Shown piece after piece: positions 33,593-40,722 of a DNA stretch of 64,000 nucleotides. The position numbers and the translations under genes were made by a program. The stretch comes from Dehalococcoidia bacterium (GTDB lineage: Bacteria; Chloroflexota; Dehalococcoidia; Bin125), in contig JAJDXE010000004.1 of the NCBI GenBank assembly GCA_022825265.1, forward strand, positions 270,341 to 334,340, given 5' to 3'. The notes beneath the pieces are model-generated. The model had not been told where the DNA came from. It did no database searches and worked only from the letters and a program-made list of their open reading frames with translations. How positions within the stretch are numbered: the stretch's first letter is position 1; each line of letters begins with the position of its first letter.

Positions 33593-33610
33593 AGCCTCAG
33601 TGTATGAGGG

Positions 33611-33926
33611 GGTGGTCGGTGGTTAGGGAGGAATTTTTTTCTGAGGCCGCTGTGAGAAAAAGAATCGCGATCTCCAGTGTTTTACGGGAGATCGTGAGCG
33701 TCTGGGTGGTCGGAAGTGGTTGGGGTTGGAAGGTGTTGGAAAGCGGGGGTGTCCAGTTGAGCCTTGCTCGGCTTTGCTGGGCGTGTGGCGAGTGGCTGAA
33801 TGGTCGGTGGTCGGGCCGGAAATTTTTTCCTGAGCGCGCCGAGGAAAAAAGAGGCACGATCTCCTGTGTTTTGCAGGGAATCTTGGAGAGCGAGGTGGTC
33901 GGAAGTGGTTTGGAAGGTGTTGGAAC
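33611..33926. repeat. Two tandem direct repeats of about 130 bp separated by about 60 bp, each carrying an A/U-rich hairpin. Possibly a duplicated sRNA or integration-site remnant.
   Basis: Unit 1 runs about 33611-33741 and unit 2 about 33801-33926, with long colinear identity. The hairpin is tttttct...agaaaaa in one copy and tttttcct...aggaaaaa in the other, a compensatory change. Local GC is lower than the genome. Confidence 0.6.
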
Positions 33927-34026
33927 GTTGGCGGTCACTGCGGATTGCTTCTCTTCTGCCTGTCGAACCTGTGTGCGTTATTCTATCGTGATGGGCGATG
34001 GGCTGGGGGAGTCGTAGGATTCAGCT

Positions 34027-37000
34027 ATGCCAACTCCGGAGCTATGCGGCAAATTCGCTCAATACATCCTCGATCGGCACAATCAGGCCGCCGCCGAGGC
34101 AGACATCCGAGCGGCGGCGCGCGACTTTCTGATCGAAACAGGACTCGCCGATCGCGAAGAGATCGACATGGAACAGTCACCGGCGAGCGGTTGGTCGGGA
34201 CGGGTCGACCTGCGGACGCGTGACGTCATTGTCGAGTTCAAGGTGAGAATCGGCGATCGGATCAACCCGGACGAGAAGCACGTCAACCAGCTCGACGACT
34301 ATCTCAAGGCGGCAGTGGAAGGCGGACGACCACAGCGATTCGGGATCCTGACCGACGGCAAGTACTGGGTTCTGAGATGGCCGGGGATGGGGCTGGTGCG
34401 GACGCAGGCGCCGCACGCCTTCACGCTGAACAGTGCTGACCAGGGCCTGCTGCTGTACGAGTGGCTGCGCGACCAATCGCAGGCGCTGGAAGAGCGTGGC
34501 GTGCCGCCAACGGAGGACGAAGTCAAGAAGCGACTGGGCGAGGGCCCGCGATTCGAGCAGCACATTGCTGCGCTCAACGACCTCTACCAGGCCAAGCGAG
34601 ATGATCCGACGATTGCTCTCAAGCGCGATCTCTGGCGGAGCCTGCTGGCTGCCGCGCTGGGTCAGGTGGTGGAGGAGGAACCGGACCTTGACGAGCTCTT
34701 TGTGCGACATACCTATCTCTCGGTCGTGGTCGGACTGGCGGTGCAGGCGGCGTTCGGGATTGAAATCGAAGGGGCGGCTAACAGCGATCCCGTCGCGCTG
34801 CTGGGCGGTCAATTGTTCGTCGACCAGACCGGCGTCAGCGGCGTGGTCGAGTCGGACTTCTTTACCTGGCCTGCGGAAATCGGCGGGGACGAGTGGATCC
34901 GCGACCTGGCGCAGCGGATTGGCTGGTTCGACTGGAACGAGGCGGAGTCGGACATTGCGCGGATTCTGTACGAATCGGTGATTCCCGCCGACGACCGGCG
35001 ACGGCTGGGCGAGTACTACACGCCCGACTGGCTGGCGCGGGAGATTGTCGACGCGGTGGTGACCGACCCGCTGAATCAGCGGGTGCTCGATCCGGCCTGC
35101 GGATCGGGATCGTTCATCTTCGCGGCGGTGCGCAAGTACCTGAGCGCGGCCCAGGCCGACGGGCGGAGCTCGGCGCAGGCGGTGGACGGACTGCTGGATC
35201 ACGTGATCGGGATCGACGTGCATCCGGTCGCGGTGCATCTCGCCCGGGCGACCTGGACGCTGGCCGCCCGCGACGCGCTGGAAGGCGCGGTCGCCGAAGG
35301 CCAGTCGGTCAACGCGACGGTGCCTGTCTACCTGGGCGACTCGCTGCAATTGCGGGCCGAGACCTCGGGCATGTTCGCCCAGCAGACGGTGACGATTCCC
35401 GTGCCCGACCCGCCCGACTCAGACCTCGAGTTCAACCGAGAGCTGGAGTTTCCCCGAGCCCTGGTCGAGCAAGCCGACTGGTTCGACAACCTCATGACGC
35501 GAATGGCCAACGCGATCGAGAACGGTGAGGACCCGGCCTGGGCGCTGGACGACGAAGCGATCGGCAGCGGGCCGGAGCGGGAGATGCTGGAGAAGACCGC
35601 CGCCCTGCTGCAGCAACTCCACGAAGAAGGCCGCGACCACATCTGGGCGTACTACACGCGGAACCTAGTACGTCCGGTGGCGCTGCGGGCGGATCCGGTG
35701 GATGTGATCGTCGGAAATCCGCCGTGGATCACGTACAACAAGACGCAGGCGGTGATTCGTGAGGAGTTGGAGCGGCAGAGCAAGCAGCGATACGAAATCT
35801 GGGCGGGTGGTCGCTACGCGACGCACCAGGACATCGCGGGCATGTTCTACGCGCGCTGCGTGGAGCTGTACCTCAAGCAAGGCGGCATGGCGGCGATGGT
35901 GCTACCGCACAGCGCCTTGCAGACCGGACAGTACACGAAGTGGCGAACAGGTCAGTGGGGCGTGCTATCGGTTGACCTGGGCGTGCGCCCGCCGTGGGAC
36001 CTCGAACAGGTCGAACCGAACAGCTTCTTCCCCGTCCCATCTTGCGTGGCGTTTCTGCTGCGCAGGGAACCGAGCGGTAAGCCGCTCGCAAGTCAGGCGG
36101 AGCGGTGGTTGGGGGGTGCCGGAGGGCCGTTCTCGCGTGAGCGAGTTCGCCTATTCGACACATCCGGCGACTTTGCATCGCCATATGGGGGACGTGCCAG
36201 GCAAGGTGCAACAATCGTGCCTCGTGTTCTCTTTTTCGTCAACGAACAGTCTTCAATGGCCGCCGTCCAAGCGGCCAACACCGTGACCGTCTCTCCTCGG
36301 CGAAGCAGACAAGAAAAAGCACCCTGGAAACACCTTCAGCTACCAGAGCTGAAGGGTCAGACGATTGAAGCTGGGCACGTCTTCGACGTTCACCTCGGTG
36401 AGACCCTTGCCCCGCATGTGTTGTTGACGCCCCTAAGGGCAGCCTTGCCTCTTGCGAAGTCAACAAGAGTGTTGGCCAAGGCGGAGGATGGTTGGTTTGG
36501 AGTGGATCCGTTATCACTCGACGAGCGAATGCGTCGTCGCTGGAGACGAATCAGTGGTATCTGGGATAAGCAGAAGGGTGTGAACAACAAGCTAAGCCTG
36601 CTTGAAAGATTGGATTACGTCGGCAATCTCACTAACCAGAGAACGCTTGTCTCGCTAGGCACGAGGATCGCCTACACGAAGTCCGGCCGTCCGACGGCAG
36701 CTGTTGTCGATGATGATGCAGCCGTCATCGATCACACGGCCTATTGGGTTCAAGTCGGTTCGGAGACCGAAGCACATTATATTTCCGCAGTCATCAATAG
36801 CGACACTCTGGAAGCTGCGGTCGCACCGCTCATGTCGAAGGGTCAGTTCGGCGCGCGCGACATGCATAAGCACCTCTGGCGACTGCCTATCCCCGAGTAC
36901 GACGACACCGACCCGCTCCACGTCGAACTGGCTGAGGCCGGTGAGGCGGCGGCGATTGGCGCGAAGGCGCTCTGGGATGGGGTTCGGGTTGAGCGCGAGG

Positions 37001-37116
37001 GCAAGGGTCAGTCGACATCGGTGACGGTGGCTCGGCGTGAGATACGGAAGTGGTTGTCGGAGTCGGCGGAGGGTCGGCGGGTGGAGGAGTTGGTGTCGAG
37101 GTTGTTGGGGGGTTAG
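34027..37116 (+). CDS. MmeI-family Type IIL restriction-modification enzyme: single polypeptide with N-terminal PD-(D/E)xK nuclease, N6-adenine methyltransferase and C-terminal specificity domain.
   Basis: 1029 aa. The N-terminal RVDLRTRDVIVEFKV matches the MmeI VDLx8IEMK nuclease motif. Also has GEYYTPDWLAREIV, LDPACGSGSFIF (motif I) and IVGNPPWITYNK (motif IV, NPPW, gamma-class amino-MTase). A C-terminal region of about 400 aa would be the target recognition domain. Confidence 0.75.
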   Translation: MPTPELCGKFAQYILDRHNQAAAEADIRAAARDFLIETGLADREEIDMEQSPASGWSGRVDLRTRDVIVEFKVRIGDRINPDEKHVNQLDDYLKAAVEGGRPQRFGILTDGKYWVLRWPGMGLVRTQAPHAFTLNSADQGLLLYEWLRDQSQALEERGVPPTEDEVKKRLGEGPRFEQHIAALNDLYQAKRDDPTIALKRDLWRSLLAAALGQVVEEEPDLDELFVRHTYLSVVVGLAVQAAFGIEIEGAANSDPVALLGGQLFVDQTGVSGVVESDFFTWPAEIGGDEWIRDLAQRIGWFDWNEAESDIARILYESVIPADDRRRLGEYYTPDWLAREIVDAVVTDPLNQRVLDPACGSGSFIFAAVRKYLSAAQADGRSSAQAVDGLLDHVIGIDVHPVAVHLARATWTLAARDALEGAVAEGQSVNATVPVYLGDSLQLRAETSGMFAQQTVTIPVPDPPDSDLEFNRELEFPRALVEQADWFDNLMTRMANAIENGEDPAWALDDEAIGSGPEREMLEKTAALLQQLHEEGRDHIWAYYTRNLVRPVALRADPVDVIVGNPPWITYNKTQAVIREELERQSKQRYEIWAGGRYATHQDIAGMFYARCVELYLKQGGMAAMVLPHSALQTGQYTKWRTGQWGVLSVDLGVRPPWDLEQVEPNSFFPVPSCVAFLLRREPSGKPLASQAERWLGGAGGPFSRERVRLFDTSGDFASPYGGRARQGATIVPRVLFFVNEQSSMAAVQAANTVTVSPRRSRQEKAPWKHLQLPELKGQTIEAGHVFDVHLGETLAPHVLLTPLRAALPLAKSTRVLAKAEDGWFGVDPLSLDERMRRRWRRISGIWDKQKGVNNKLSLLERLDYVGNLTNQRTLVSLGTRIAYTKSGRPTAAVVDDDAAVIDHTAYWVQVGSETEAHYISAVINSDTLEAAVAPLMSKGQFGARDMHKHLWRLPIPEYDDTDPLHVELAEAGEAAAIGAKALWDGVRVEREGKGQSTSVTVARREIRKWLSESAEGRRVEELVSRLLGG

Positions 37117-38321
37117 GCAATCGGAGCCTTCCGAAGTTCCGCGTAAGGAATCTCAGGAATGTCAAGCAACGCAGACAAGTCAACACCCTCTGTCCAAAGC
37201 AACTGACCATCGTGAACGTGAGCCGACGCTACACTCAGGAGTTCTTTCGGGAGGTTCTGCTTGTAATGAGGGTTGAGAAACAGACGATCTCCGTAGCCAG
37301 TAGGCGTTGTCGCGACTGGACGTGCATTGCCGAACAGCCATACAGCCGCGAGATTCTCATTTCGAGCAACGCCGCTCTTATCGATCCAGACGCCTCTCTC
37401 AAGCCTTGGTTCTCCTAACTTTACATTCCAGTCAGGAGGCCCGTACTCTCGATTGCGAAGGCCGAAAAGTGATACAAGTCCTTCTTCAGCAAAGTTGTAG
37501 AAGCCATCTACTGTGCTGCACGCAACAACTAAAGGAGCGTCCAGCTGGCCTACTCGTTTCTCCCGCGCCTTCCTGTCGACCGCGGCACCAAGTGTAGGAG
37601 ATACATCCTTTGCGCCACCACCGAACCAAGCTGCTATCGTTCGCCCGGCAGAGATACCCCACTTTTCTCGCGGCTTGGGCCAAAGCCCTACATGGAGACT
37701 GCAGCCATCGAGCTCAATCGTCACTGAAGGAGCGTCGACGCGACGTGAATAACTACCGTCGACCTGCTGGAGAACTCTATCGGGGTCGCTATCCGCCATA
37801 AGACGTCGAATGCGCGATTGGATGTATCTTTTGGATGGTTGATTTGTAGGACAGCCGGATGGACGGACAGTGACCAGAAAGTGAGGGTCGTCGATTTCAT
37901 CGATCCACGTGTAAATCTGGTCTAGGATCGCGTTATCTGGTATCTCGGCGCTCGATGCCTGACTTACGGTTGCTTCGAGGTAGAATCGATTATCTCCCGA
38001 TCGGGCAAGGAAGTCTGGTTGGGAGTTAACACCCGGCACCCTTGGATGGACGGTGACAGCAAAGCCGAGGCGGCGTAGGAGCTCATGCACAACGAGCTCA
38101 AAGTACGCGCCAAGATGTTGGCCCTCGTCGTCTGACGTGAAGCGGCCGTGCAAATCGTCTCGATGATGATCCGTGGATGGATAGTCCTCAAACATAGCTT
38201 GGCACAAATCGCGGGATCGAATGGAGACATTCCAAGATGATCGATTCAGGAACTCGTACTCGCTCTCAAGGTGGTGTTTGGCCGAGGAATCCATCTGGAT
38301 ATCGTGTTCGAAGAGCTGCAT
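37113..38321 (-). CDS. Hypothetical 402-aa protein of unknown function, lower GC, convergent with and overlapping the 3' end of the Type IIL gene.
   Basis: Long ORF with coherent codon usage distinct from the host. Has a possible degenerate PD-(D/E)xK-like stretch (QPDFLARSGDNRFYLEATVS). No family recognised. Confidence 0.5.
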   Translation of the reverse strand: MQLFEHDIQMDSSAKHHLESEYEFLNRSSWNVSIRSRDLCQAMFEDYPSTDHHRDDLHGRFTSDDEGQHLGAYFELVVHELLRRLGFAVTVHPRVPGVNSQPDFLARSGDNRFYLEATVSQASSAEIPDNAILDQIYTWIDEIDDPHFLVTVRPSGCPTNQPSKRYIQSRIRRLMADSDPDRVLQQVDGSYSRRVDAPSVTIELDGCSLHVGLWPKPREKWGISAGRTIAAWFGGGAKDVSPTLGAAVDRKAREKRVGQLDAPLVVACSTVDGFYNFAEEGLVSLFGLRNREYGPPDWNVKLGEPRLERGVWIDKSGVARNENLAAVWLFGNARPVATTPTGYGDRLFLNPHYKQNLPKELLSVASAHVHDGQLLWTEGVDLSALLDIPEIPYAELRKAPIA

Positions 38322-38438
38322 GGCGGTCGATCCTCCAGCGATTGTTGTATCACGAAATCACGACGGTGGGTGGGATGTGGAGCGGCTATAGGTCGCGGTA
38401 GGTGGCTTCGTTGCGGCGGAGAACGTCGGTGATCGTGA

Positions 38439-38924
38439 TCAGGCGGGCGCGGCTTCAGTGAGCGTGACCGAGTGTGGGTTGTAGGAGAGGGCGAGGTCGA
38501 AGGAGCGGAGGGCGTCCTGGCCGAGGAGACTGGGGGCTTCCCAGTTGCTATCGGGCGTGGGTAGTGGGGTGGATGGCCGGGCGATCAGGATTGGTTGATC
38601 GACGACCACGGGCTTGTGCTCTTCGTCGCTGAAGGTCAGGCTAGCGGGCCGAATCACGTACTGACTCGCGCTGCCGCTGATCCCGTAGAGGTCGAAACGG
38701 GCGATGTCCCGGTCAAAGTCGATGCCCTGATAGGCCGCCCCCAGGACAGCACGCGCATGAGCTGGAGACAGCGCGGTGTAGTCCGCCCCGGTGTCGATCT
38801 GCATCCAGATCGCCGCGCTACGGCCCGCAATCTGAACCGATACGCGAACCACGGGCCGCAACACATTGCCGAGAAGCGGATGAAAGGAAGCTTCGCTCTC
38901 AAACTCCGCTCGAACCCGCGCCAC
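38439..38924 (-). CDS. Retropepsin-like (clan AA) aspartic protease.
   Basis: 161 aa with an IDTGADYTAL (DTGA) aspartyl-protease motif and a GTG start that overlaps the upstream stop (TAGTG). Confidence 0.65.
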   Translation of the reverse strand: MARVRAEFESEASFHPLLGNVLRPVVRVSVQIAGRSAAIWMQIDTGADYTALSPAHARAVLGAAYQGIDFDRDIARFDLYGISGSASQYVIRPASLTFSDEEHKPVVVDQPILIARPSTPLPTPDSNWEAPSLLGQDALRSFDLALSYNPHSVTLTEAAPA

Positions 38925-39222
38925 TACTGCGCTCGTTTGGGACGGGGGAAGGAATCAGCATGACGGAGCATCGGCCGCCGCCGAATGAAGTAGTGATAGG
39001 CGCCGCGCCGCTGTGAATCGGGCAGCGCTTCCAGCGCGGCGAACATCTCGGCAGGGTGGTCGAAGATGTGGATCGTCTCCGCGTCGTAGATCAGGACCCA
39101 TTTTCCGCGATTGTGAGGAGAGATTTCGGCGCTCTGCTCGGCCCAGCAAGCGACGTTGCGCTCGTACACGGCAAGATCCGCAAGTTGAGTCTCAACGTCG
39201 GACGCGTGCTGACTGCTGACCA
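38924..39222 (-). CDS. Small conserved hypothetical protein (about 99 aa, possibly DUF5678-like), translationally coupled to the retropepsin-like protease.
   Basis: Sequence MVSSQHASDVETQLADLAVYERNVACWAEQSAEISPHNRGKWVLIYDAETIHIFDHPAEMFAALEALP... It is embedded as the C-terminus of a long spurious antisense ORF in the track. Its stop overlaps the protease start by 1 nt. Confidence 0.5.
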
Positions 39223-39322
39223 TGATGAACGGCCTCCCTGTCGACGATGGTAATCGAACGTGTGCCCACCCTCTACACTGGCCCCAGACCTCCCGCGTAC
39301 CCCTCCGATGAAGGAGTTTCCG

Positions 39323-40561
39323 ATGAAGTTTCACTGGTTCAACCTGATGCCCTGGCCTCATCTTCCGGATGATTTCCGGGAGACGAATCGGTCGGTCTGG
39401 GTCGATGTGGACTCTCGGCTGTATGACCCGGTGGAGGGTCACCGGGTGTACAACGAGTACCTGGACCAGCTTGAGTTTGCGGCCGGGCTGGGCTTTGACG
39501 GGATCGGCGTGAACGAGCATCACCAGAACGCGTACGGGATGATGCCGTCGCCGCAGATCATGGCGGCCTCGCTGGCTCGGCGGACGAAGGACGTGACGCT
39601 GCTGCTGCTGGGTCAGTCGATTGCGCTGTACAACCCGCCGACTCGGGTGGCGGAGGAGATGGCGATGCTCGACGTGATGTCGGGCGGTCGGCTGGTGGCG
39701 GGATTCCCGGTGGGGACGTCGATGGACGACAACTTCTGCTTCGGCTCGAATCCGGCGACGCTGCGGGACAAGTACAGGGAGAATCACGACCTGATCCGTC
39801 GGGCGTGGGAGGATCCGGATGTCTTCTCGTGGAACGGCGAGTACAACAAGATTCGCTACGTCAACCTCTGGCCGCGTCCGATCCAGAAGCCGCACCCGCC
39901 GATCTGGATTCCCGGCGGCGGCTCGGTGGAGACCTGGGACTTCTGCGCGGAGATGGGCTACAACTACAGCTATCTCTCGTTCAATGGCTATGTCCGCGGT
40001 GAGGCTCTGATGCAGGGCTTCTGGAATCGGCTGGGCGAGATGGGCGTCGAGTTCAATCCGTTCCAGGGCGCGTTTGCGCAGCAGGTCGTGGTCGCCGAGA
40101 CCGACGATCAGGCCGAGCAGATGTACACCGAGCATCTGCAGTACTTCTTCGACAAGTGTCTGCATGTGTATCCCGGCTTCGCCGACGCGCCCGGGTACCG
40201 GACCGAGAACACAATCCGGGCCGGTCTGCGAGCCGGCGGCGCGCAGGGTCTGGGCATTGCGCACACGCTCGAGTGGAAGGACTGGGTGCGCGAGGGCTAC
40301 ATCGTGGCCGGCTCGCCGGACTCGGTGGCGGAGCAGATCGAGGCCCTGGCGACGAAGCTGCAGGTCGGCCACCTGGTGACTCTGCTGCACTGCGGCGACA
40401 TGCCGGACGACAAGGCTCGGGCGTCGACGAAGCTGTTCGCCGAGCAGGTGATGCCTCGGGTGAAGCACATCTGGGAAGACTACGAAGATCACTGGTCGCC
40501 GAAGCCGATCGGCTCGGAGCAGGTCGCGACGCCGGCTCCGGTGCTGACGGGCTCCAACTAG
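39323..40561 (+). CDS. LLM-class flavin-dependent oxidoreductase.
   Basis: Begins MKFHWFNLMPWPHLPDDFRETNRSVWVD...NEHHQN. An AAGGAG sits 7 nt upstream of the ATG at 39323. Confidence 0.8.
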   Translation: MKFHWFNLMPWPHLPDDFRETNRSVWVDVDSRLYDPVEGHRVYNEYLDQLEFAAGLGFDGIGVNEHHQNAYGMMPSPQIMAASLARRTKDVTLLLLGQSIALYNPPTRVAEEMAMLDVMSGGRLVAGFPVGTSMDDNFCFGSNPATLRDKYRENHDLIRRAWEDPDVFSWNGEYNKIRYVNLWPRPIQKPHPPIWIPGGGSVETWDFCAEMGYNYSYLSFNGYVRGEALMQGFWNRLGEMGVEFNPFQGAFAQQVVVAETDDQAEQMYTEHLQYFFDKCLHVYPGFADAPGYRTENTIRAGLRAGGAQGLGIAHTLEWKDWVREGYIVAGSPDSVAEQIEALATKLQVGHLVTLLHCGDMPDDKARASTKLFAEQVMPRVKHIWEDYEDHWSPKPIGSEQVATPAPVLTGSN

Positions 40562-40580
40562 GCGCATGCCTCTACTTGGT

Positions 40581-40722
40581 GAAGACCTCCCCCTCTGGGG
40601 GAGGTGCCCCGGAGGGGCGGAGGGGGCCTCTCTGCGAGCTGCGGACGTTAACGAATCTGACAGTGGGAGCCGAGCCCCCTCAGTCGCTTCGCGACAGCTC
40701 CCCCAAAAGGGGGAGGTCTTGC
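40581..40722. repeat. Complete but empty MITE-like copy of the CCCCCTCTGGGGG-family element: both inverted-repeat arms around a 44-bp core.
   Basis: Left arm is gacctCCCCCTCTGGGGGaggtgccccggaggggcggagggggcc. Right arm is gccccctcagtcgcttcgcgacagctcCCCCAAAAGGGGGaggtc. These match the arms flanking the DUF559 gene at 15468 and 15894 nearly base for base. Confidence 0.7.

Follow-up and report, generated by a model that had tools for sequence, protein, structure and literature searches.

A divergent DUF5678 protein and a retropepsin-like protease form a recurrent, translationally coupled gene pair next to a variable slot in Dehalococcoidia

Retropepsin-like aspartic proteases, recognised by their DTG and 'ILG-R-D' motifs, are famous from retroviruses, while their free-standing prokaryotic relatives are almost entirely uncharacterised. 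For the prokaryotic single-domain clan AA families it has been stated that 'little is known' (PMC2642776). Both these peptidases and the DUF5678 family have already been catalogued, in either case as uncharacterised. Here we describe a gene pair that brings a DUF5678 relative and a clan AA protease together. It lies on the minus strand of a 64,000-nucleotide (nt) stretch of Dehalococcoidia bacterium DNA (contig JAJDXE010000004.1), which we call the window and to which all coordinates refer. The pair is a divergent member of a recurrent module and not a new kind of system. What we add is the near-universal coupling of both families, the finding of a hypervariable allele in a fixed slot, and the hypothesis that the two proteins act as inhibitor and protease.

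The pair is made up of the following features.

38924..39223, minus strand: small gene of the divergent DUF5678 family, 99 amino acids (aa) plus TAG stop, supported by its open reading frame (ORF), its conservation, a nonsynonymous to synonymous rate ratio (dN/dS) of 0.32 and an AlphaFold2 model with a predicted local distance difference test score (pLDDT) of 85.6
39233..39238, minus strand: Shine-Dalgarno sequence GGGAGG, 9 nt upstream of the small-gene ATG, read from the sequence
38439..38924, minus strand: gene for a retropepsin-like (clan AA) aspartic protease, 161 aa, GTG start, TGA stop
38922..38926, minus strand: stop/start overlap TAGTG, one G serving both the small-gene TAG and the protease GTG

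According to the sequence and the list of ORFs, the small gene runs from an ATG at 39223..39221 over 99 codons to its TAG at 38926..38924, and the protease gene from the GTG at 38924..38922 over 161 codons to a TGA at 38441..38439. A preliminary description of this DNA had proposed a two-gene module whose stop and start share one nucleotide in TAGTG; the sequence at 38926..38922 confirms this. The ATG of the small gene had been placed at about 39222, one base off, as the frame from 39222 runs into a stop and the frame from 39223 is clean. A strong Shine-Dalgarno sequence is seen before the first gene only and none before the protease gene. Almost certainly, the pair is a self-contained two-gene operon in which the 99-aa divergent DUF5678 protein is made first and ribosomes restart at the overlapping GTG to yield the 161-aa retropepsin-like protease.

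The pairing is kept across genomes and metagenomes. A scan of 185,579 species genomes gave 17 genome loci, and in all 17 a small ORF with the motif ERN..(F/W)...(K/H)W(V/L)LI(Y/H) is located directly upstream of the protease. Another 29 loci were found in metagenomes by protease alignment, with proteases only 24-43% identical to the query. Here a DUF5678-like ORF ends at the protease start in 28 cases (hidden Markov model E-values 1e-6 to 1e-24), and the sole exception has less than 90 nt of upstream sequence. Distant DUF5678 genes behave alike: all seven that were sampled from the profile matches precede a protein with D-T/S-G plus LLG-x-D/E. These counts bear out the earlier suggestion that such pairs recur in bacteria without an assigned function, and the neighbourhood comparison it proposed finds the DUF5678-like ORF directly upstream of the protease across genome and metagenome loci. 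A protease widespread without its partner, named beforehand as evidence against the pair, was not encountered; wherever upstream sequence exists, a protease of this subfamily is never partnerless.

The junctions between both genes are tight. Among 52 of them, 36 overlap in total: 18 by 4 nt (ATGA or GTGA), 14 by 1 nt (TAGTG, TGATG or TAATG), and 4 by longer stretches. In two the genes abut, and of the remaining junctions only one has a gap beyond 18 nt. The proposed translational coupling is upheld by these overlaps and by the 1-nt overlap in the window. There is no conserved third gene. The neighbours change from locus to locus, and partner subtype and protease subtype change together. With 128 clusters in 1.84 billion representatives, the family is rare and patchily distributed, on contigs of 27-66% guanine-cytosine (GC) content with unrelated neighbours. 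Overall, the results show that the DUF5678 and retropepsin-like families constitute an essentially obligate, translationally coupled and co-diversifying pair across bacteria; the pairing probably extends to archaea.

The small gene forms the 3' end of a 547-aa minus-strand ORF (38924..40567) that is antisense to a plus-strand monooxygenase gene (Pfam Bac_luciferase, 1.4e-36). This long ORF is spurious and masked the small gene, just as the preliminary description had held. Public annotation shows comparable problems. The protease is called from an internal ATG (121 aa) rather than from the overlapping GTG (161 aa) in L023:8456-8821, L024 and L025 (loci being numbered with L) and in protein P0020, and the small gene is often uncalled or extended upstream (110 aa in P0003). 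Because public gene calls miss or misstart the genes, a word-indexed protein search returned only three homologs of the small protein (99%, 86% and 68% identity) against 43 for the protease. All named sources of homologs are Chloroflexota/Dehalococcoidia metagenome-assembled genomes.

Selection was analysed by comparing the window with L022 (small protein 86%, protease 91% identical) according to Nei-Gojobori. Nucleotide differences at codon positions 1, 2 and 3 amount to 4, 8 and 14 for the small gene (dN/dS as listed above) and to 11, 6 and 35 for the protease gene (dN/dS 0.16). Judged from these substitution patterns, both genes are under purifying selection. This bears on the reading that the small ORF is no gene at all but either the end of an antisense ORF that arose by chance or a leader that is not translated. 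The region is high in GC and abundant in long spurious ORFs, and direct Pfam or NCBIfam matches are absent, with the three word-indexed homologs mentioned. Nonetheless, the ORF is kept in every related locus (86%, 68% and about 54% identity in relatives), its differences fall mostly at third codon positions, it has its own Shine-Dalgarno sequence and ATG, its AlphaFold model is confident, and homology to DUF5678 is strong at the profile level. The non-gene reading is refuted by this evidence and retains hardly any probability; both conservation and codon-position bias, whose lack was to speak against the gene, are present.

Assignment of the small protein requires remote homology. It has no match in Pfam, NCBIfam, PADLOC or PHROGs. 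For Pfam DUF5678 (PF18929, gathering score 23.2 bits) it gives no match at E<=1, and the best E-value among 15 close relatives is 0.21. A family profile built from the window protein and 18 relatives was searched against the 1.84 billion cluster representatives and retrieved 128 proteins at E<=1e-3. Out of 87 scanned profile matches, 40 carry Pfam DUF5678 (best E 5.2e-10), and nine of ten that were checked individually exceed the gathering cutoff. Alignment with hhalign of the window family to verified DUF5678 members yields 98.9% probability (E 3.2e-17, 78 columns), a partly circular figure given that the comparison set consists of the profile's own matches. The AlphaFold2 model comprises a helix (4-37), a beta-hairpin (42-54), two helices, a strand (76-79) and a disordered basic tail (80-99). 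Foldseek and an HMM search found no structural relatives in PDB. A fold search against BFVD places two Pandoravirus 'DUF5678 domain-containing' models at ranks 2 and 3 (E 0.025 and 0.073, probability 0.99-1.0, root-mean-square deviation 2.5 A). Judged from sequence profiles and predicted fold, the small protein is a divergent DUF5678 relative that fails the curated threshold. Membership of this family, which the preliminary description had raised, therefore stands by remote homology (profile, profile-profile and fold) and fails at Pfam's own threshold.

Among the 128 profile matches, 14 are tandem double or triple DUF5678 fusions. These suggest a functional unit with two partner domains, which would fit a symmetric protease dimer. 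A tandem double-DUF5678 gene (203 aa, P0063) is also seen at L026/L034:10001-10612, as a protease-less extra copy about 300 nt upstream of the normal pair.

The protease was described beforehand as retropepsin-like with an IDTGAD active site, and this is correct: IDTGAD occupies residues 43-48 and the fold matches retroviral proteases. The catalytic motif is D44-T45-G46-A47 and the second motif L133-L134-G135-Q-D137 (PSLLGQD), in which the window's clade has Gln where Arg is usual. Across 26 homologs, down to 38% identity, D44, T45, L133, L134, G135 and D137 never vary, and conservation at G46 is at least 90%. The AlphaFold2 model is of high quality (pLDDT 91.8, predicted template modelling score 0.85), and its best Foldseek matches in PDB are the proteases of feline immunodeficiency virus (FIV), human T-lymphotropic virus 1 (HTLV-1) and Mason-Pfizer monkey virus (M-PMV), with E-values of 4.7e-5 to about 1e-2 and probability 1.0. 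The DTG motif, the second motif and the fold are thus all those of the retropepsin class, while the curated cutoffs are not reached. Pfam reports gag-asp_proteas (8.2e-5) and Asp_protease_2 (1e-3), both under their gathering cutoffs; in the test for PF13975 and PF13650 the scores were 23.6 bits (cutoff 28.2) and 20.2 bits (cutoff 24.3). NCBIfam, including TIGR02281 and TIGR03698, gives no match for the window protease, and more distant relatives weakly match these two families. By its sequence scores, the window protease represents a divergent subfamily that lies under every curated cutoff.

Each protease chain has one DTG. Since retropepsins with a single DTG per chain need a second chain, activity of the protease would require a homodimer. 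In the 26-homolog alignment the C-terminal 20 residues, FDLALSYNP(P/H)SVTLTEAAPA, stand out by their conservation, and they are modelled as a beta-hairpin (strands E142-148 and E151-157). In retropepsins the dimer interface is formed at this C-terminal region.

A near-invariant 30-nt core, TTCGACCTCGCCCTCTCCTACAACCCACCC, had suggested a nucleotide element or attachment (att) site within the 3' end of the protease gene. We do not claim this, as synonymous diversity is only modestly lower there (codon entropy of about 0.5-1.1 against 0.6-2.1 bits in other conserved columns). L006 and L008 hold a second copy of the protease tail, and the window has none. Conservation of the tail is explained by protein-level constraint on the C-terminal beta-hairpin together with local duplication of the ParE cassette. 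The last ~25 protease codons are duplicated 1.3-1.4 kb downstream at L006:7833-7909 and L008:7600-7655, and also in L024 and L025. The duplicate is followed by a second antitoxin and ParE cassette (L006) or by a ParE remnant (L008), and between the tail copies an unrelated 119-aa TIGR03698-like aspartic protease is encoded on the opposite strand. This looks like local duplication of units consisting of the protease tail and a ParE cassette. Frameshifted proteases behind an intact upstream DUF5678-like ORF are observed at L008:5816-6360 and L016:5880-6363. In L008 the frame is interrupted by what looks like a 1-nt deletion immediately ahead of the IDTGAD codons. Loss of the protease first is how a toxin would be expected to decay, but the shifts may also be mere errors, both loci being long-read assemblies.

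Another observation concerns the position of the pair and its rate of change. It is found at one syntenic position in all 18 related genomes. A comparison of the 17 genome loci with the window gives the following protein identities.

Left flank, two luciferase-like monooxygenases (LLM) and a hydrolase: 90-98% for LLM1
Right flank, rhomboid gene: 80-95%
Right flank, short-chain dehydrogenase: 88-95%
Protease: 40-71%
Small protein: 29-55%, or undetectable by tblastn

In these sequence comparisons the pair is shown to diverge far faster than its flanking genes despite purifying selection on both of its genes. Between the protease gene and the conserved rhomboid/short-chain-dehydrogenase pair lies a variable slot of 1.4-5 kb (window 33600-38440; L001-L017 and L023). 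Its content differs between genomes and may be a Type IIG restriction-modification enzyme, another set of methylases and nucleases, DUF4917, or a putative antitoxin and ParE cassette. Neighbouring features in the window are as follows.

34027..37116, plus strand: Type IIG restriction-modification enzyme, 1029 aa, convergent with the pair (PADLOC REase_MTase_IIG, 1.1e-69; Pfam N6_Mtase and Eco57I)
37113..38321, minus strand: 402-aa ORF downstream of the protease, in the variable slot and outside the conserved pair
38386..38454, minus strand: 3' remnant of a ParE toxin gene (SRARLITITDVLRRNEATYRDL and stop, from translation), in another frame and beginning inside the last protease codons
39265..39280, minus strand: motif CAGTGTAGAGGGTGGG in the intergenic region that separates the small gene from the divergent monooxygenase gene, from an alignment of 8 loci
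39323..40561, plus strand: LLM, divergent from the pair, the conserved left flank with the identity across loci given above

The slot behaves as a small hotspot for defence and toxin-antitoxin (TA) genes in these Dehalococcoidia genomes. The preliminary description had put the pair in a defence island. In support of this, the pair borders a variable slot which in the window contains the Type IIG enzyme, the 402-aa ORF and the ParE remnant; against it, the slot is small (~5 kb), its flanks are metabolic, and distant pairs occupy unrelated contexts. The term is fair for this lineage, provided that the island is seen as small and the pair as sitting at its edge. Distant pairs are found, for example, beside ribosomal protein S21 and heme-synthesis genes or beside an aldehyde dehydrogenase, and often beside ORFs that were read as PIN- or Fic-like by eye from their N-terminal sequence rather than by a library scan.

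Homologs of the Type IIG enzyme are present in 9 of the 17 related genome loci, and in addition in L022 and L034. The latter has DAO and ApbA as flanks; its pair is 38% identical and, here too, faces a convergent Type IIG gene (63% identical). Searches of Pfam, NCBIfam, PADLOC and PHROG gave no match for the 402-aa ORF. As none of the related loci has a homolog of it, the ORF was rejected as a part of the module. Its stop overlaps the convergent Type IIG stop by 4 nt (37113-37116), and L022 has an unrelated 292-aa gene at its position. Regarding the ParE remnant, its 57 nt beyond the protease stop code for the final 19 residues of ParE (ending in LITITDVLRRNEATYRDL and a stop), of which 15 are identical to the intact ParE at L006:7046-7321 (Pfam ParE_toxin, 5.9e-8). 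An identical deletion junction (TGA/TCAC.ATCACCGAC) is shared by L001, L002, L004, L010 and L014, and other loci have at this spot an intact putative antitoxin (~178 aa) and ParE.

Upstream of the pair, CAGTGTAGAGGGTGGG lies ~45 nt before the small-gene ATG and is kept in 8 of 8 aligned loci. It marks the border where the conserved flank stops and the variable segment starts, with sharp divergence downstream. The motif may belong to the promoter or 5' region of the divergent monooxygenase gene, or may be a shared promoter or regulatory site. A sigma-70 promoter or intrinsic terminator consensus was not found at 38000-39700, and an Rfam scan gave sub-threshold miRNA-like noise only. Further away, in the spacer of the two luciferase-like monooxygenase genes, an inverted repeat (40582-40601 and 40701-40720) has 20-nt arms that are 90% complementary and 99 nt apart, with sub-threshold miRNA-like Rfam matches on both strands.

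What could the pair do? The preliminary description had thought a toxin/antitoxin or protease-activated effector role plausible. We tentatively favour the reading, possible if somewhat short of probable, that the small protein, translated together with the protease, inhibits the protease dimer and that both form a TA-like addiction or conflict module. The single-DTG protease would homodimerise to build its active site, and coupled translation would yield the small protein in step with it. The small protein would then bind the protease dimer, probably with two copies per dimer, and keep it inactive in the manner of a cognate inhibitor or antitoxin. Once its partner is lost, displaced or cleaved, the cytoplasmic protease would be able to cut proteins of the cell or of an invader. 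Such a module would explain why the pair persists in every related genome despite diverging far faster than its neighbours. The tandem DUF5678 fusions and the joint change of partner and protease subtypes hint at a 2:2 complex. In this lineage the pair behaves like a conflict gene, with fast divergence under purifying selection next to a variable restriction-modification/ParE slot. Its renewed co-occurrence with a Type IIG enzyme (63% identical) elsewhere, in the chromosomal setting of L034, also speaks for this reading, as do the ORFs read as PIN- or Fic-like beside distant pairs.

A considerable number of observations weigh against it. PADLOC-DB v2 contains no family for either protein at E<=1, neither protein matches a toxin or antitoxin family in Pfam, NCBIfam or PADLOC, and PHROGs gave no match. 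With tblastn no match was obtained on plasmids or phages for the protease, nor on plasmids for a DUF5678 protein, and the viral contigs of IMG/VR contain no relatives. The small protein shows no DNA-binding family or fold (Pfam, NCBIfam and a PDB fold search) and is acidic to neutral (isoelectric point 4.5-6.6), and it would therefore seem to lack the autoregulatory half that type II antitoxins usually have. Where DUF5678 proteins widely conserve a C-terminal '...W-I-L', the window's clade has a longer basic tail instead, so that a mechanism based on tail docking is not universal. Presence/absence polymorphism is not seen among the 18 related genomes, which also fits a housekeeping role. We know of no precedent for a retropepsin-like or aspartic-protease toxin. 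A literature search returned no paper linking retropepsin-like proteases to TA or anti-phage roles, and no functional paper on DUF5678. Concerning an operator, the analysis covered the conserved upstream motif CAGTGTAGAGGGTGGG.

The last-mentioned housekeeping role would consist of regulated proteolysis, in which the DUF5678 protein serves as an adaptor, activator or chaperone for folding, dimerisation or substrate recognition of the protease, with no part in toxicity or conflict. We regard this as rather unlikely. The one fixed syntenic position, purifying selection on both genes and the lack of any mobile-element or defence-database signal agree with it, and coupling and co-variation fit any obligate complex. 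It does not readily account for the extreme divergence relative to the flanking core genes, nor for a family that is so rare and patchy (128 clusters) on contigs of widely differing GC content with unrelated neighbours, and no substrate-like third gene is conserved. Less probable again is a signal-triggered switch, by analogy with ImmR/ImmA-type pairs, in which the protease would cleave its DUF5678 partner upon stress or infection and thereby release another process that the partner restrains. The gene order (partner first, protease second, tightly coupled), the disordered C-terminal tail of the partner and its co-diversification with the protease would suit a switch, but neither a DNA-binding nor any other effector domain was found in DUF5678, there are no conserved downstream target genes, and a link to mobile elements is missing.

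The pair might also be an accessory of the neighbouring Type IIG system or island, for instance a controller of the amount of enzyme or a factor that stabilises the island. It is convergent with the Type IIG gene in the window and in L022, likewise in the different context of L034, and beyond the nine related loci with homologs there are remnants in L008 and L023. Nevertheless, L001, L002, L004, L005, L009 and L014 have the pair without a Type IIG homolog, the distant pairs L029 and L032 reside among metabolic or ribosomal genes, and neither protein has a PADLOC match; we consider an accessory role improbable. Returning to the inhibitor-protease reading, its widest form would hold that DUF5678-retropepsin pairs are a widespread, unrecognised TA or abortive-infection class in bacteria and archaea, with a homodimeric cytoplasmic protease as effector, DUF5678 as its inhibitor and, here, a hypervariable allele anchoring a restriction-modification/TA hotspot. 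This generalisation is speculative and in our judgement doubtful.

Should the protease turn out to act as a toxin or defence effector under the control of its partner, TA and immunity biology would gain a new enzymatic class, with the first aspartic-protease toxin, and the origin of retroviral proteases could be viewed in a prokaryotic setting. If the two are instead a housekeeping pair of adaptor and protease, two 'unknown' families can still be annotated together. The analysis also corrects systematic errors in gene calling, by which the small gene is often missed and the protease start is set 40 codons too late.

Comparison with known systems places the window pair as follows. Like DUF5678 (PF18929) proteins, the small protein has a helix, a hairpin motif (K/H/Q)W(V/I/L)x(I/V)(Y/H) and a further helix, and is encoded directly upstream of a retropepsin-like gene; it differs by a longer N-terminal helix and by ending in a 20-residue basic disordered tail instead of '...W-I-L'. 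The prokaryotic single-domain clan AA peptidases (COG5550/COG3577; TIGR03698 and TIGR02281; PF13975 and PF13650) resemble the window protease in their single DTG(A) domain of about 120-160 aa and their hydrophobic-hydrophobic-Gly-x-Asp motif, and in being cytoplasmic and presumably dimeric. The window protease is set apart from them by an N-terminal beta-hairpin extension, a subfamily-specific C-terminal hairpin (FDLALSYNPPSVTLTEAAPA), its obligate DUF5678 partner and its scores under the curated cutoffs. The retroviral proteases (FIV, HTLV-1, M-PMV and human immunodeficiency virus) share the DTGA catalytic motif and the G-(R/Q)-D helix motif and are the best structural matches. Identities with these are nonetheless 17-20% and template modelling scores 0.4-0.6, and the window protease is about 60 residues longer, lies outside any polyprotein or retroelement and is encoded with a separate partner protein. 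From type II TA operons, such as the ParDE-type cassettes in related loci, the window pair differs in that it lacks a match to a known toxin or antitoxin family and presence/absence polymorphism among close genomes, and in that no DNA-binding domain was found. It does share with them the arrangement of two small co-directional genes, the smaller one first and with a stop/start overlap, and like these operons it evolves fast and sits among TA and restriction-modification genes.

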